Positions 10,675 to 18,208 of a stretch of DNA of 64,000 nucleotides are shown piece by piece. The notes under the pieces are model-generated. The model saw only the letters and a program-made list of their open reading frames with translations. It did no database searches and was not told where the DNA came from. The position numbers were made by a program, and so were the translations under genes. This DNA is from Clostridium sp. CAG:628 (GTDB lineage Bacteria; Bacillota_I; Bacilli_A; RF39; UBA660). Each line of letters begins with the position of its first letter. The stretch's first letter is position 1. The stretch spans positions 2,330-66,329 of the forward strand of contig FR902241.1 of the NCBI GenBank assembly GCA_000438415.1, read 5' to 3'.

Positions 10675-11370
10675 TTATTTATAAAGTAACTCTTTTAATT
10701 TTTTATCTCTATTTTTAACATAAAACTCTCTATCAGTTAAAAGAACAATTATATCCATAAAAGGTAAAAGTTCTTTCTTATTAAGTTTTTGATACTTTAT
10801 TTGCTTAATACTCTTTTTCTTATAATCACACAAAGTTAAAACATCTAAACAAATCATAATACCTACTAAAATATAATTTATTCCTAAGTTATTATGTATA
10901 ATAAAATTTGCAAACTTATTTGGTAAATAATTTATATAAATATCACTTCCTAAAAGTAAATACATAACTATTATAGAAATATCTTGCAAAATTGTTTTTG
11001 CTCTTCCTAAACTACTAGTTTTAATATTCTTGTTATCTTTAAAACTAAGTGTATTAATTACAAATATTGTAAATTCTAAAAATAATACTATTAGAATGAC
11101 TGGATAATAATATGTGAGAAGTCCAAGTAAAACAAAAGCAAAAAGTTTATCACTCACAGCATCCATTAATCCACCCAAAAACGTTTCAACTTTTAATTTT
11201 CTAGAAAGGAATCCATCTAACATATCAGTTAAAAATAATATTAGTATTAATAAGCCAAGAGATTTAACTCCATACTTAAAATAGATTATAGGTATTAATA
11301 TAGAACCTATAAATCTACTAAAAGTTATCAAATTAACAAGCACTAGTTTTAAATAATATATCTTTTTCAT
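10675..11370 (-). CDS. CDP-alcohol phosphatidyltransferase family protein (PgsA-like)
   Basis: Multi-TM protein with DG..SR....G...D...D (LTDMLDGFLSRKLKVETFLGGLMDAVSDK). Confidence 0.6.
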   Translation of the reverse strand: MKKIYYLKLVLVNLITFSRFIGSILIPIIYFKYGVKSLGLLILILFLTDMLDGFLSRKLKVETFLGGLMDAVSDKLFAFVLLGLLTYYYPVILIVLFLEFTIFVINTLSFKDNKNIKTSSLGRAKTILQDISIIVMYLLLGSDIYINYLPNKFANFIIHNNLGINYILVGIMICLDVLTLCDYKKKSIKQIKYQKLNKKELLPFMDIIVLLTDREFYVKNRDKKLKELLYK

Positions 11371-11407
11371 AACTAAATTATAACAAATATTTACTTTTAT
11401 GTAAACA

Positions 11408-12559
11408 CTATCTAAAACTATAATACTTTGTTTTATTTTCTAAAGTATACCCTTTACTACTTGCTAGTTCACTAACAGTTGTAACGGTATATCCCATTTC
11501 TTTTAATTCAGGTAAGACTTTCTTTAAAGCCTCCAAACTCGTTATATACACATCATGCATTAAAACAATACTACCATCTTTAATATTATTAATAATATTT
11601 TTATAGACTATTTCTTCATCTTTATACAGCCAGTCATACGAATCAATATCCCACATAATAATAGGATAATTTATTCTATCTAGTATATTCTTTTCTAAGT
11701 TACCATATGGTGGTCTAAATAATTTAATAGATTCTTTAGTTATTTCATTAAAAATAATACTTGTACTATTAACTTCACTATCAATTTCCTTATCACCTAA
11801 AATATTTAAATTCTTATGACTATATGAGTGAGAAGCCACCTCCATTCCATTATTTAACAAATACTCCACTACACCTTGATTATATTTTATTCTATTTCCT
11901 AGTTCAAAAAAAGTAGCTTTAAACCCATACTCATTTAAAGTATTTACAAAGTCTTTTGTATATATGCTTGGTCCATCATCAAAAGTAAAAGCAACCATTT
12001 TTTTATTAATAAGTTCACTATTTGTTTCTATAGTATCATTTAATACTATATATACTTCATACTTAGTATTAACACATCCAAAATAAATAAAAATATTATC
12101 TTCACAAATTTTTAAATATGTACTATTAAACTTATCATTTAGTATACTTTCATAAATAGTATTACTATATTTATTCCTAATTTTATTAAGTATTAAATCA
12201 TTTAACAAATCATAATTAATTATCTCATTATTATTAATTAACTCTCTTTTTCTAATATTATAGTTAATACTCTTATAATAATAATTTTTATTTTTCTTAA
12301 GACAAATAAACACATTAACCAAATCATTAATCTGATAAACACTATATTGAATAGAATATTCCCCTTTAAAATTATTTAAAAAATTTTTTATTTCTTTATT
12401 AATTACTTTATTATTAAAATATGGATATTCTATTTTATTGTAACTTTTAATTTCATAACTAATACTTTCTATTTCTTCTTGAAACATAAATCTTTTAATT
12501 ATAATTATTATTAAAAATAATGTAATAATACCAATTATATAACACATAATTTTCTTCAT
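11408..12559 (-). CDS. polysaccharide deacetylase (NodB-homology domain) with N-terminal TM anchor
   Basis: NodB motifs FTFDDGP and HSYSH. Single N-terminal TM helix. Confidence 0.7.
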   Translation of the reverse strand: MKKIMCYIIGIITLFLIIIIIKRFMFQEEIESISYEIKSYNKIEYPYFNNKVINKEIKNFLNNFKGEYSIQYSVYQINDLVNVFICLKKNKNYYYKSINYNIRKRELINNNEIINYDLLNDLILNKIRNKYSNTIYESILNDKFNSTYLKICEDNIFIYFGCVNTKYEVYIVLNDTIETNSELINKKMVAFTFDDGPSIYTKDFVNTLNEYGFKATFFELGNRIKYNQGVVEYLLNNGMEVASHSYSHKNLNILGDKEIDSEVNSTSIIFNEITKESIKLFRPPYGNLEKNILDRINYPIIMWDIDSYDWLYKDEEIVYKNIINNIKDGSIVLMHDVYITSLEALKKVLPELKEMGYTVTTVSELASSKGYTLENKTKYYSFR

Positions 12560-12580
12560 ACCAAATTATATGAAAAAAAG

Positions 12581-13000
12581 TTACTTCTTAGTAACCTTCT
12601 TCTTTGTAGTTTTATCAGTTTTTAATAAATCTCTTATTTCACTTAATAATATAACTTCTTCACTAGGTGTTTTAATTTTTTCTTTATTTTCATTCTTTTC
12701 TTGTTTCTTCTTAAATCTATTAATTATCTTAATAACTGTAAACAAACAAAATGCTACAATCAAGAAATCTACTACATTCTGTAAGAAACTTCCATACATA
12801 ATTTTAGCATTACCCACTTTAATACTTAGATTAGTAAAGTCATGTCCCCCAATTATTATACCTATTAAAGGCATCATTACATCATTTACTAAACTAGATA
12901 CTATTTTAGAAAATGCTCCACCTATAATAACACCAACTGCCATATCAAGTACATTACCTTTACTAATAAACTCTTTAAACTCACTAATAAACTTCTTCAT
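12581..13000 (-). CDS. mscL: large-conductance mechanosensitive channel MscL
   Basis: 139 aa. Starts [30 protein letters not shown].., with two TM helices and a charged C-terminal tail. Confidence 0.85.
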
Positions 13001-13098
13001 TACTCACATGTAAATCCAGTTTTTGGACCCTCCTTTTTTTACTCTCCTCATTTTCTAATAACATTGTATCAAAAATAATTAATCAGGTAAAGTGTTTT

Positions 13099-13896
13099 CT
13101 AAAAAATATGACTATTAAAACATTTTTTATTTCTAGCAATATATTTGTCATAATCAAACTCGAATTTCTTATCAAATAATTCCGAAATATAATATCTAGA
13201 TATTTTAAAAACCATATTCTTGTTCTGTTGTCTACCAATTCTTTCTCCACTTCTTGCCACTCTTCCACATAGATTAATAGATATTTTCCCGTCTTCAAGT
13301 AAACACAAGAATTTTTCAAAAGATTTAATTCTATAAATTGAAATTTTATAATACCTAAAAAACAGATTTCCATATTCTTTCTTTTTACTAGCACAAACAA
13401 AACACAAATTTGTAAGTTTTGCTAAAATTCTTTTTTTTAATGAATAAAAATTAACATATGATATCTTTTCAATTATGTTTTTATTCTTGTCATATATAAG
13501 TAAATATATTTTTTTATCTTTTCTATTTACATCAAATTGAAAATAGTTTTCATAAATTAAAGTCATCTTATTTGCATATACATTTCCTTGTAATAAATAT
13601 TTACTTTTAAACTCACTATCAGGTTTTCCATAAGTCAAAAGCAATCTTCTCATTTCAAAATCTGTGGGTCCATCAAATGATTTTGCAAATAAAGAGATTG
13701 GAAATCTGCTAAATCTAGTTTTGCATTTAATTTCTATATTTTTATAGTCTGGCAAAAATGAACTATCAGGACTCTTTCCTAGTTCATCTTCAAAAGTGAG
13801 ACCAACAGAATTATCACTATTATTTATACCCTTTATATATCCTTTTTCCGCTATTTTTAAAAATTTAGTAATTAATTTCTTTTCTATTTTTTCCAT
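13099..13896 (-). CDS. MvaI/BcnI-family type II restriction endonuclease-like protein (solitary)
   Basis: 265 aa. N-terminal block GYIKGINNSDNSVGLTFEDELGKSPDSSFLPDYKNIEIKCKT matches the recalled MvaI/BcnI catalytic region (G..G..LE..LG...N....D.....E.K). C-terminal ...ISINLCGRVARSGERIGRQQNKNMVFKI.. resembles the MvaI recognition lobe. No methyltransferase lies within 5 kb. Confidence 0.55.
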   Translation of the reverse strand: MEKIEKKLITKFLKIAEKGYIKGINNSDNSVGLTFEDELGKSPDSSFLPDYKNIEIKCKTRFSRFPISLFAKSFDGPTDFEMRRLLLTYGKPDSEFKSKYLLQGNVYANKMTLIYENYFQFDVNRKDKKIYLLIYDKNKNIIEKISYVNFYSLKKRILAKLTNLCFVCASKKKEYGNLFFRYYKISIYRIKSFEKFLCLLEDGKISINLCGRVARSGERIGRQQNKNMVFKISRYYISELFDKKFEFDYDKYIARNKKCFNSHIF

Positions 13897-14158
13897 ATTT
13901 ATTCTATTATATGTTTTTTATGAATTGATAAAAATAGTAAGGATACTATATATAATATCATTTTTTAATTAATATTTCTAGTATTTTTTAACATTTATTT
14001 AACATTTATAATATAAAACTAAAAATTATTAAGTCTTACATTTTTTAATATTTTATTAGCTTTGCTTTGTTTACAGCAAATCTTCAGTTGGTTATTTAAT
14101 GTAAAGAATAAATACTTATTAAAACAAACTTTTTGTTAGCTTAAAAAGGGCGGCCACC

Positions 14159-14193
14159 AAAAAAAAGAACTCCAAAGAGTTCCGATTTTTTTC
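14159..14193. terminator. bidirectional Rho-independent terminator (A8-hairpin-T7) ending the tRNA transcript
   Basis: GAACTC-CAAA-GAGTTC stem flanked by an A-run on one side and a T-run on the other. Confidence 0.6.
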
Positions 14194-14194
14194 T

Positions 14195-14279
14195 TGGTGC
14201 GCGCGAAGGGACTTGAACCCCCATGGATTTCTCCGCTAGATCCTAAGTCTAGTGCGTCTGCCAATTTCGCCACGCGCGC
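14195..14279 (-). tRNA. tRNA-Leu (anticodon TAG), class II with long variable arm, encoded CCA
   Basis: Reverse complement gives GCGCGCG TG GCGAAATTGGCAGACGC A CTAGA-CTTAGGA-TCTAG variable arm GGGGGTTCAAGTCCCTT CGCGCGC A CCA. The 7-bp acceptor stem and anticodon loop CU-UAG-GA are clear. Confidence 0.85.
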
Positions 14280-14283
14280 GCAC

Positions 14284-14360
14284 TGGTGGACCCTGCAGGA
14301 CTCGAACCTGCGACCGCCCGGTTATGAGCCGGATGCTCTAACCAACTGAGCTAAGGGTCC
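14284..14360 (-). tRNA. tRNA with CAT anticodon (elongator Met or lysidine Ile2; sequence resembles Bacillus tRNA-Ile2 LAU)
   Basis: Reverse complement GGACCCTTAGCTCAGTTGGTTAGAGCATCCGGCTCATAACCGGGCGGTCGCAGGTTCGAGTCCTGCAGGGTCCACCA has a perfect cloverleaf with anticodon loop CU-CAU-AA. Confidence 0.85.
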
Positions 14361-17564: not shown

Positions 17565-18035
17565 TTATTTATTTAATTCATTTAACATCTTTTCTTTTAA
17601 TGTATCTATATCAGCAAAGAATAAATTAACGCCTTCTTTTTTCATGGCTAACAAAGAATTAAAATCTTCAAGTATTTTATCTTTTAAATTGTCAGCAACT
17701 CTAACTGGAGCACCATTTATAGTATGTACGTGATCTATATATTTTTCCAATGTAGGAAATGCATTTTGAAGTAAAATTACCGACTTTTTACTTGCAATCC
17801 GACCTATTAAAATAGACTTACAACTTCCATACTTTTTAATTTTTTTATCAATTATAGGCTGATATTTTTGTACCTTGCTACTTAGTGGTATAAACCATAA
17901 AATGTCATTATCACGAATAGTAAAATATGTAGGTCTTGTTTTACCATTCTCATGATTTATAATTAGTCCTTTATCATTTACAACATCAAAAAACTCGTCT
18001 TTAATATGGTAAATGTAGCCTGTTTGTACTTGCAT
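17565..18035 (-). CDS. ToxN/AbiQ-like endoribonuclease toxin (candidate type III TA toxin)
   Basis: 156 aa. ...RPTYFTIRDNDILWFIPLSSKVQKY... corresponds to the ToxN/AbiQ ...RP..G.....YYAPLSSPK.. core. Perfect AGGAGG RBS. Preceded by a repeat array and a terminator on the same strand. Confidence 0.5.
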   Translation of the reverse strand: MQVQTGYIYHIKDEFFDVVNDKGLIINHENGKTRPTYFTIRDNDILWFIPLSSKVQKYQPIIDKKIKKYGSCKSILIGRIASKKSVILLQNAFPTLEKYIDHVHTINGAPVRVADNLKDKILEDFNSLLAMKKEGVNLFFADIDTLKEKMLNELNK

Positions 18036-18102: not shown

Positions 18103-18208
18103 AACATTTTCAACCGAGATCATTTATAACTCGCACCACTCGGAAGCGACTAACATTTCGCGATTGGACTCATTTATAACCCGCGCCATCCATAAGCGGC
18201 AAACATTT
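18103..18208 (-). ncRNA. candidate type III antitoxin RNA: two tandem 49-50-nt direct repeats (ToxI/AntiQ-like)
   Basis: Plus-strand aacattt occurs at 18103, 18152 and 18202, so the minus strand has AAAUGUU boundaries. Each unit contains UUAUAAAUGA and a hairpin whose stem differs by compensatory changes between units (CCGC/GCGG versus UCGC/GCGA). About 50% GC in a ~26% GC genome. Confidence 0.5.

Follow-up and report, generated by a model that had tools for sequence, protein, structure and literature searches.

The Type IIP restriction endonucleases MvaI (CC^WGG; PDB 2OA9/2OAA) and BcnI (CC^SGG; PDB 2ODH/2ODI) share a Pfam family and a fold, and both belong to restriction-modification (R-M) pairs, that of MvaI being mobile. 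A Type II restriction endonuclease (REase) that lacks its methylase is expected to be lethal, and the occurrence of solitary, intact REase genes is a long-noted puzzle (Ershova et al. 2012, PMC3488263). Here we analyse a nuclease gene of the MvaI/BcnI family situated in 64,000 nt of the genome of Clostridium sp. CAG:628 (assembly GCA_000438415.1, contig FR902241.1, positions 2,330 to 66,329; this whole stretch is referred to below as the window). Homologs were collected by a scan of one genome per GTDB species, which gave 80 loci, almost all of them from uncultured gut Bacilli or "Tenericutes"-type metagenome-assembled genomes (MAGs), and one of which (Bacilli bacterium HGM10825, L009) is the species of the window itself, at 99% identity. 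It is near certain that the product of the gene is an intact endonuclease of the MvaI/BcnI family, monomeric in type and with two lobes, and that the gene makes up on its own an accessory cassette of about 0.9 kb. Equally near certain is that this cassette, found in uncultured low-GC gut Bacilli shortly downstream of tRNA(CAT)-tRNA-Leu(TAG), carries no methyltransferase, controller protein or other partner gene. We tentatively interpret the product as a restriction or defence nuclease that works alone and spares its host, in the simplest case by depending on DNA modification or some other non-self feature of its substrate.

The window nuclease resembles R.MvaI in its full-length homology, two-lobe fold, catalytic residues and size (265 versus 249 aa), and the similar size implies a monomer with one active site. 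However, it has no cognate N4-cytosine methyltransferase, the DNA-reading residues H223, D224, H225, R209, D207 and R230 of MvaI are replaced, and it forms a chromosomal single-gene accessory cassette behind a tRNA pair rather than one half of a mobile R-M system. Family and fold are also shared with R.BcnI, although the latter is part of an R-M pair. Plasmid-borne relatives (e.g. that of Liquorilactobacillus nagelii pL11827-3), which belong to the same family at 23-29% identity, are laid out as a divergent SPPY-type methyltransferase, a helix-turn-helix controller and the REase, whereas the window nuclease and its 80 relatives have neither methyltransferase nor controller. MutH, a GATC nickase that acts with an unlinked Dam, is a monomeric PD-(D/E)XK relative of MvaI and BcnI whose gene is likewise unlinked to a methylase, yet MutH is a core repair gene, whereas the nuclease is accessory, with no detectable sequence similarity to MutH and a weak fold match.

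Solitary Type II REases such as the Bacteroides HpaII-like enzymes and PacI are, like the window nuclease, full-length REase homologs without a nearby methyltransferase; no cognate methyltransferase was found for 6 of 11 orthologues of the Bacteroides HpaII-like group, whose proteins, the authors suggested, may have taken on another function (PMC3488263). That survey describes no MvaI-family clade, no fixed tRNA-linked position and no altered loop, all of which apply to the present nuclease. Type IIM and Type IV enzymes (DpnI, McrBC, Mrr) are stand-alone, methylase-free and harmless to an unmodified host, and so offer a possible functional analogy, but they differ from the nuclease in folds or domain sets. 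The family, the "MvaI/BcnI family" labels that NCBI attaches to the MAG copies and solitary REases as a phenomenon are already known, and our literature search found no description of the present methylase-less clade, its altered loop or its cassette linked to tRNA and pseudo-tRNA.

The nuclease, its active site and its recognition loop

The gene and the sites within it that are discussed here are as follows.
13099..13896, minus strand: gene of an MvaI-fold PD-(D/E)XK endonuclease, 265 aa (open reading frame, Pfam, alignment and AF2 model)
13789-13791, minus strand: codon of catalytic E36
13747-13749, minus strand: codon of catalytic D50
13732-13734, minus strand: codon of catalytic E55
13726-13728, minus strand: codon of catalytic K57
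about 13204-13236, minus strand: clade-specific recognition loop G221-R-Q-Q-N-K-N-M-V-F-K231

The open reading frame (ORF) runs from an ATG at 13896 to 13099 and its product carries KGINNSDNSVGLTFEDELGKSPDSSFLPDYKNIEIKCKT and NLCGRVARSGERIGRQQNKN. Residues 9-241 match the whole of the PF15515 (MvaI_BcnI) profile, positions 1-227 of 227 (E=5e-35, 122 bits against a cutoff of 25), a domain also carried by all 83 database homologs of the nuclease; the wider family library comprises 1,456 clusters (50% identity) at E<=1e-3. NCBIfam holds no model that matches, and in PADLOC the protein falls only among generic Type II REase models. R.MvaI is the sole convincing sequence match in the PDB, both for the single sequence (E=3e-17) and for a 21-sequence profile (E=9e-37), while BcnI is marginal in the profile search (E=0.018) and MutH and Sau3AI are matched in neither search. 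An AlphaFold2 model built from the 21-sequence alignment (pLDDT 88.9, pTM 0.83) is predicted to adopt the two-lobe monomeric MvaI/BcnI fold: in Foldseek it is overlaid on DNA-bound MvaI (2oaa) with TM-scores of 0.86/0.92 and a root-mean-square deviation of 1.7 A over 246 columns, BcnI is second (TM 0.62-0.72, E about 5e-11), and MutH is third (probability 0.77) with a TM-score of only 0.33-0.38. By sequence or profile homology and by core-gene distribution, the nuclease is not of the MutH type.

The active site of MvaI consists of Glu36, Asp50, Glu55 and Lys57 (PMC1874612), and the nuclease has the same residues at the same positions, thereby retaining the E...D-X4-E-X-K arrangement of MvaI. 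All four are invariant in 21/21 aligned homologs and in 76/76 full-length genomic homologs, and the tetrad is kept in 123 of the 129 full-length sequences obtained from the best 150 representatives of the whole family. Judged from its sequence, then, the nuclease looks catalytically competent. An initial annotation of the window had assigned the protein to the MvaI/BcnI family from short strings, which we located in the 265-aa ORF, and had allowed that a different fold or a lost D/E/K active site might yet reclassify it; the full-length PF15515 match, MvaI as top PDB match, the overlay on the MvaI-DNA complex and the invariant tetrad leave family, fold and active site standing.

In MvaI, CCWGG is read in the major groove by His223, Asp224, His225, Arg209, Asp207, Arg230, Thr68 and Thr102 (PMC1874612). 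The equivalent residues of the window nuclease are these.
H223: replaced by Q (R/K in most relatives)
D224: replaced by N
H225: replaced by K
R209: replaced by C (C/V/I among relatives)
D207: replaced by N (a variable position in the clade)
R230: replaced by K (K/Q in the clade)
T102: replaced by N (a variable position in the clade)
T68: replaced by S, the only position of the set at which the hydroxyl is retained

The nuclease thus lacks the reader set of an MvaI-isospecific (CC^WGG) enzyme. With most of the readers replaced, a CCWGG or CCSGG specificity is not to be assumed and the target is probably not plain CCWGG, in agreement with the altered specificity that the initial annotation had listed among its options. 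The loop that takes the place of the MvaI readers, G-(R/K)-(Q/Y)-(R/K)-N-K-N, is itself strongly conserved (in the 21-homolog alignment N225 never varies, while conservation of K226 and N227 is 90% or more), and its (R/K)-N-K core is limited to the top ~12 of the 129 full-length sequences mentioned above. A more distant group, clade B (33-39% identity), keeps H-D-H and has mostly lost R209, D207 and R230, and a small third loop type reads N-R-S-K-N. Among the loci of this third type is L072, where two adjacent MvaI-like ORFs of 241 and 201 aa follow the tRNA pair (about 1196-2600), an arrangement that could have come from tandem duplication or from the splitting of a second copy.

The ORF is intact in 79/80 species, and its ratio of nonsynonymous to synonymous divergence (dN/dS) is 0.05-0.19 in 16 close pairs. 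For the same genome pairs the mean dN/dS of the nuclease is 0.10, against 0.12 for its neighbours (mean of medians), with similar dS, and in a gene-by-gene comparison the nuclease is 56% identical where ordinary neighbours are 51-75% identical; correlations between nuclease and neighbour identity across all pairs gave mixed coefficients (0.17-0.82) and are uninformative. It is near certain that the gene is inherited together with its flanks, is under purifying selection while present, and is often lost. A phage origin was rejected, given one match of 28% among 50,697 phage records. No Shine-Dalgarno sequence precedes the start of the window copy, while a 4-5-nt core of one is found in 58/79 homologs and is absent in 17/79.

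The solitary state and the host's own sites

Methyltransferases were sought by their signature motifs, (D/N/S)PP(Y/F/W) for amino-methyltransferases and PCQxFS for 5-methylcytosine methyltransferases. No such motif occurs in any ORF of at least 90 aa in the 64-kb window, nor in the 1,272 flanking ORFs lying within 10 kb on either side of the gene in the 80 genomes. Similarly, tblastn searches with two cognate-type methyltransferases from plasmid-borne MvaI/BcnI systems gave no match in 2.25 Mb (the window plus the loci), and precomputed Pfam annotations show no methyltransferase within 8 kb of three distant homologs on long contigs, whose surroundings consist of aminoacyl-tRNA synthetase, ribosomal-protein and cell-division genes. 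As a positive control, the methyltransferases of the plasmid-borne systems (SPPY, DPFxGSG) were picked up by the motif scan. Given that none of the 80 loci has a methyltransferase while the control was detected, the solitary state is a property of the whole clade and not an accident of one genome, and a cognate methyltransferase gene adjoining the REase, as in a Type II R-M system, is absent. The original statement that no methyltransferase lies within 5 kb can therefore be extended to the whole window, whereas the related loci, among which a lost methyltransferase had been suspected, contain neither the gene nor a relic of it.

The window contains 18 CCWGG and 3 CCSGG sites, about as many as base composition predicts, and the CCAGG noted earlier at 7183 is real. 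The argument that an unpartnered enzyme would be toxic to its own host presupposes a CCWGG/CCSGG specificity that is not to be assumed. The 831 kb of gene-positive DNA (the window plus L010-L088) show no purging of any sequence of 4, 5 or 6 nt. Nor, in a comparison with 530 kb of gene-negative DNA, are any of the 32 pseudo-palindromic 5-mers purged or specifically depleted. Ratios of observed to expected occurrence for three motifs are given below.
CCWGG: 0.76 in gene-positive DNA, 0.67 in gene-negative DNA
CASTG: 0.46 in gene-positive DNA, 0.53 in gene-negative DNA
GATC: 0.44 in gene-positive DNA, 0.57 in gene-negative DNA

GATC is modestly more avoided in gene-positive DNA, where it still occurs about once per kb, in a contrast that is confounded by lineage. 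Our attempt to identify the recognition site through motif avoidance was accordingly unsuccessful, since no motif is purged or specifically depleted and only GATC is modestly lower. As no short motif is purged, a "genome without sites" of the PacI type is not supported for sites of 4-6 bp, and, with no motif missing and no linked methylase, the host chromosome must be either protected or intrinsically not a substrate. Separately, GATC is the most under-represented palindrome in both sets of loci (L010-L088 with the window, and L092-L171) and GGATCC has a ratio of 0.31, which suggests GATC- and CASTG-specific restriction pressure in this lineage, independent of the nuclease.

Protection by a distant partner is the premise of the strongest alternative to a self-sparing enzyme, in which the nuclease is the R half of a separated R-M system whose methylase lies elsewhere, perhaps as a lineage-wide orphan of the Dam/Dcm type, and which cuts unmethylated invading DNA at a short site. 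There are precedents, in that Ershova et al. assigned predicted distant methyltransferases to 57/272 solitary REases and reported that orphan methyltransferases are able to protect against matching REases (PMC3488263). The nuclease looks active and is under selection, and GATC, CCWGG and other short motifs occur in host DNA, so that some protection would be required; moreover, the most avoided palindrome, GATC, is the more so in gene-positive loci (0.44 versus 0.57). However, that difference is confounded by lineage and the avoidance is strong in gene-negative loci too, the nuclease is lost cleanly as a single unit, no methyltransferase occurs anywhere in the 64-kb window, and with neither a linked methyltransferase nor a relic in any of 80 species (0/80), the separation would have to be both ancient and stable. 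We regard this explanation as rather unlikely, though a serious competitor.

A variable site behind a tRNA pair

The features of the site in the window, in order of position, are listed here.
12581-13000, minus strand: mscL (Pfam MscL, E=6.5e-44), adjoining the nuclease
13124..14030, no strand assigned: variable segment of ~0.9 kb comprising the promoter region and almost the whole ORF (boundaries approximate, junctions AT-rich)
13952..13980, minus strand: promoter-like site TAGAAA-17 nt-TATTAT with a TG-extended -10, 56 nt upstream of the ATG (consensus match only)
14084..14159, plus strand: degenerate inverted copy of the adjacent tRNA(CAT) (local alignment)
14166..14183, no strand assigned: bidirectional intrinsic terminator GGAACTC-TTTG-GAGTTC, preceded by an A-run and followed by a T-run, which closes the tRNA operon
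14195..14279, minus strand: tRNA-Leu(TAG), the immediate upstream anchor of the module
14284..14360, minus strand: tRNA(CAT), called "Met" by ARAGORN, the source of the inverted pseudo-copy

The nuclease is therefore flanked, as first described, by mscL on one side and the tRNA pair on the other, all on the minus strand. The order tRNA(CAT), tRNA-Leu(TAG), nuclease on one strand, which is that of the window, recurs in 46/80 genomes while the outer flanks vary (cysS, P140, mscL and others), and several further loci have the same tRNA pair nearby with order or orientation rearranged. The tRNA(CAT) itself is nearly invariant across 44 species, and from its sequence (GGACCCTTAGCTCAGTTGGTTAGAGC...CTCATAACCGG...) it is probably closer to the Bacillus tRNA-Ile2, which carries lysidine and reads AUA, than to an elongator or initiator tRNA-Met.

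That the gene is accessory is evident from loci that lack it. A metagenome scan with a pattern spanning the tRNA(CAT)/tRNA-Leu(TAG) junction returned 80 loci, 51 of which have at least 1.2 kb of downstream sequence; the nuclease is present in 5/51, always directly downstream and on the same strand, and absent from 46/51. Two comparisons delimit the missing segment. L168 and L025 have flanks that are 96-98% identical, and L168 lacks exactly 859 nt containing the nuclease ORF and retains the pseudo-tRNA; both junctions in L025 carry a short TTGTAT(A/T) repeat. Starting at the tRNA, L119 aligns collinearly with the window at 95-99% nucleotide identity, and lacks about 0.9 kb (window ~14030-13124), in place of which stand about 300 nt of unrelated AT-rich DNA. 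The comparison was confined to the part of L119 that begins at the tRNA, since the ~1,070 nt before it are GC-rich foreign sequence joined inside the conserved T-arm of tRNA(CAT), that is, an assembly chimera. At syntenic loci elsewhere, the tRNA pair is directly succeeded by P140, or by genes which in other species come after the nuclease, and other, unrelated cargo at the same position includes HD, NUDIX, RelA/SpoT-like and ABC-type ATPase genes.

In L106, oriented here so that the tRNA pair is on the plus strand, the C-terminal domain of a tyrosine integrase (11156-11776; PF00589, E=1e-27) abuts the 3' end of tRNA-Leu(TAG); upstream sequence is 97.8% identical at the nucleotide level to L012, and the similarity stops exactly at the tRNA 3' end. 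We rejected L106 as an example of an empty site, the adjoining ORF being the integrase of an element inserted at tRNA-Leu, and the contig ending too early to tell. This integrase is direct evidence that tRNA-Leu(TAG) is an integration site, and together with the other cargo it bears out the earlier suggestion of a tRNA integration hot spot.

Between the tRNA pair and the nuclease lies a further conserved feature, the inverted pseudo-copy of tRNA(CAT). Two remnants of it survive in the window: TGGTGGCCGCCC (14159-14148 in the minus-strand reading), complementary to the tRNA 3' end, and TAACCAACTGA (14094-14084), complementary to the D-arm. In other species the copy is far better preserved. Local alignment of each spacer with the reverse complement of its own tRNA(CAT) scores 28.2 on average, against about 13 for the forward tRNA(CAT), for tRNA-Leu in either direction and for shuffled sequences. 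Eight spacers contain matches of 14-25 nt at 96-100% identity, each of which is inverted and to tRNA(CAT); preservation is best over tRNA positions 31-60, a stretch that begins in the anticodon loop and reaches the T loop. The pseudo-tRNA is present in 43/50 gene-positive and 3/46 gene-negative loci (Fisher p=3e-16, the loci not being phylogenetically independent). In four genomes (L013, L014, L055, L070) the tRNA pair is flipped, such that an intact tRNA(CAT) lies inverted beside the nuclease and a degenerate forward copy lies beyond tRNA-Leu, and a comparison of L016 with L029 shows the whole tRNA(CAT)-tRNA-Leu-nuclease unit turned around within shared flanks. These flipped states are accounted for by recombination of one inverted tRNA(CAT) copy with the other, and the same recombination may keep the pseudo-copy recognisable through gene conversion.

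A second alternative to a self-sparing defence enzyme starts from these rearrangements, and holds that the nuclease is selfish and homing-like, or the last cargo of an integrated element, with a cut site in or near tRNA(CAT) whose repair or recombination would have given rise to the pseudo-tRNA, the inversions and the tRNA linkage. Free-standing or intron-borne endonucleases in tRNA contexts include SegB of phage T4 and the PD-(D/E)XK enzyme I-Ssp6803I. In most clade A loci the nuclease lies beside tRNA(CAT)-tRNA-Leu(TAG) irrespective of what surrounds them; it is polymorphic for presence and absence, and is associated with the pseudo-tRNA and with units or tRNA pairs inverted in place; a tyrosine integrase abuts tRNA-Leu in L106; and clade B is likewise found among tRNA genes, between a divergent xth-like gene and convergent tRNA-Pro(TGG)/tRNA-Arg(ACG). 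Nevertheless, the nuclease shows no sign of recent horizontal movement, its dS being that of its neighbours and its identities tracking those of ordinary neighbours, it is essentially absent from phages, and no integrase, repeats or att-type direct repeat surround it. Furthermore, such an enzyme would also find a target in the essential tRNA(CAT) of its host, and purifying selection in 79/80 species suggests a benefit to the host. On balance, we find this origin distinctly unlikely.

Co-transcription of the nuclease with the tRNAs is not supported. An intrinsic terminator follows tRNA-Leu in nearly every locus, the spacer to the nuclease having a median of 188 nt, and the terminator and separate promoter-like site in the window make simple co-transcription unlikely; promoter-like matches in the spacer are no commoner than in shuffled sequence. 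A structured RNA such as a T-box was also considered for the spacer and rejected, Rfam returning only the two tRNAs.

Neighbours of the nuclease in the window comprise mscL, a polysaccharide deacetylase, a CDP-alcohol phosphatidyltransferase, a ClpX-like ATPase, the tRNA pair, P140, DnaI and a DnaB/DnaD-type initiator. A 147-aa ORF on the plus strand (12570-13013), antisense over the mscL region, is almost certainly spurious. P140 (14444-14881, minus strand) has no Pfam or NCBIfam match; its second ATG is likely the true start, giving 139-140 aa (139-145 aa overall), and it is 95-100% identical between genomes whose other proteins share 50-75%. We considered P140 as a partner of the nuclease, but while it lies within 6 kb in 32/80 loci it is equally common at tRNA pairs that lack the nuclease, and is thus a neighbour of the tRNAs. 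Differences in identity between P140 (96%) or xth (97%) and the nuclease (50-58%) likewise raised the possibility of allelic replacement or diversifying selection at the latter, which is ruled out because P140 and xth are ultra-conserved and because the dN/dS and dS of the nuclease match those of its neighbours. Further from the nuclease, an ORF at 17565-18035 (minus strand) encodes a CptN toxin (NCBIfam NF047359, 155 bits against a cutoff of 90; PDB 4rmo, E=2e-17), and just upstream of it, at 18120-18208, two direct repeats of ~39 nt with 50-nt spacing are likely the cptI antitoxin RNA. This CptIN system (type III toxin-antitoxin, abortive infection) looks intact, with no match in Pfam or PADLOC.

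How the host may be spared

Several observations lead us to favour, tentatively, a stand-alone restriction or defence nuclease which spares its host by virtue of its own substrate requirement. The gene is solitary in every species examined and is dispensable, its loop is constant, and MvaI acts on modified sites, being reported to tolerate modifications and to nick C5-methylated CCSGG sites (PMC3001055). Constancy of the loop over about 50 species would fit modification-directed or fixed-function enzymes rather than diversifying R-M specificities. The monomer would clamp duplex DNA between catalytic and recognition lobes in the manner of MvaI, the former providing E36, D50, E55 and K57 with two metal ions, and the latter setting the loop G-(R/K)-(Q/Y)-(R/K)-N-K-N into the major groove, where Arg or Lys could read guanines. 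The requirement that exempts the host chromosome would most likely be a base modification or other feature of invading DNA, amounting to restriction of the Type IIM/IV kind, and secondary safeguards may lie in nicking or in expression at a very low level, the window copy being without a Shine-Dalgarno sequence.

Several points weigh against a modification-dependent defence role. Our search of literature and databases found no known Type IIM/IV enzyme with the MvaI fold, and the methyltransferase searches span the 64-kb window and the flanking loci, so that an unlinked protective methylase may well lie elsewhere in the genome. The somewhat stronger depletion of GATC in gene-positive than in gene-negative loci would fit ordinary restriction of an unmethylated site better than dependence on modification, and long vertical retention at one locus over about 50 species is less typical of defence genes, whose turnover is usually faster. 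Finally, the neighbourhood is mostly housekeeping, CptIN, 3.7 kb away, being its sole defence-type member.

Such a neighbourhood counts in favour of the idea that a restriction enzyme was recruited as a DNA-repair or housekeeping nickase, as in MutH or Vsr. A monomeric architecture is common to MutH, MvaI and BcnI (PMC1874612), and MutH ranks third in the Foldseek comparison (probability 0.77). In clade B the nuclease is paired divergently with an xth-like (exonuclease III) gene at 11 loci. These are L058, L063, L066, L068, L074, L075, L078, L079, L083, L086 and L087, and the partner is a highly conserved gene of 252 aa, called xth-like from its N-terminal sequence only. However, MutH goes undetected by sequence and profile searches and its TM-score is 0.33-0.38, no mutS, mutL, dam, dcm or vsr occurs in any neighbourhood examined, and the nuclease is accessory, since near-identical strains and the majority of loci with this tRNA pair do without it; a cassette consisting of one accessory gene, which leaves no space for a partner, speaks against a MutH-like core role. 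We therefore consider a repair nickase very unlikely.

That the gene persists as an inactive or effectively silent relic, harmless since its product is either not made or unable to cut, is highly improbable, for while the window copy lacks a Shine-Dalgarno sequence (like 17/79 homologs), promoter-like matches are at the level of shuffled sequence and REase homologs without detectable activity are documented (PMC3488263), the tetrad is invariant in 76/76 homologs, dN/dS is about 0.1 and equal to that of neighbours, a Shine-Dalgarno core is present in 58/79 homologs and the recognition loop is strongly conserved. The initial annotation had entertained both a MutH-like role, now unlikely for a gene that is accessory, undetectably similar to MutH in sequence and marginally so in fold, and a remnant of a decayed R-M system, which is contradicted by the intact ORF in 79/80 species, the invariant tetrad, the low dN/dS and the lack of a methyltransferase relic at 80 loci. 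Its family, fold, active site, solitary state, hot spot and altered specificity are retained, while the clade-wide fixed tRNA position and the pseudo-tRNA had gone unseen.

Returning to the self-sparing nuclease, a bolder proposal, which we hold to be doubtful but worth stating, is that the (R/K)-N-K clade constitutes a new functional class on the MvaI scaffold, either a stand-alone endonuclease, independent of a methylase, that recognises modified or otherwise non-self DNA, or an enzyme acting on the tRNA(CAT) locus. If true, the former would give the MvaI/BcnI/MutH fold group its first Type IIM/IV-like member, and the latter would account for the conserved inverted pseudo-tRNA and the flip-flop inversions. 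The locus also provides a clear case in nature of a minimal accessory cassette that occupies a variable, tRNA-linked site with an inverted pseudo-tRNA. The puzzle of the solitary REase is here clade-wide, extending over at least 80 species of poorly known, uncultured gut Bacilli in which the gene is kept under purifying selection, with its active site untouched and its loop rebuilt. Consequently, the nuclease is a testable candidate for a new specificity, or for a modification-dependent or nicking enzyme, on a well-understood monomeric scaffold, and such an enzyme could serve as a reagent and inform on how restriction enzymes are repurposed.

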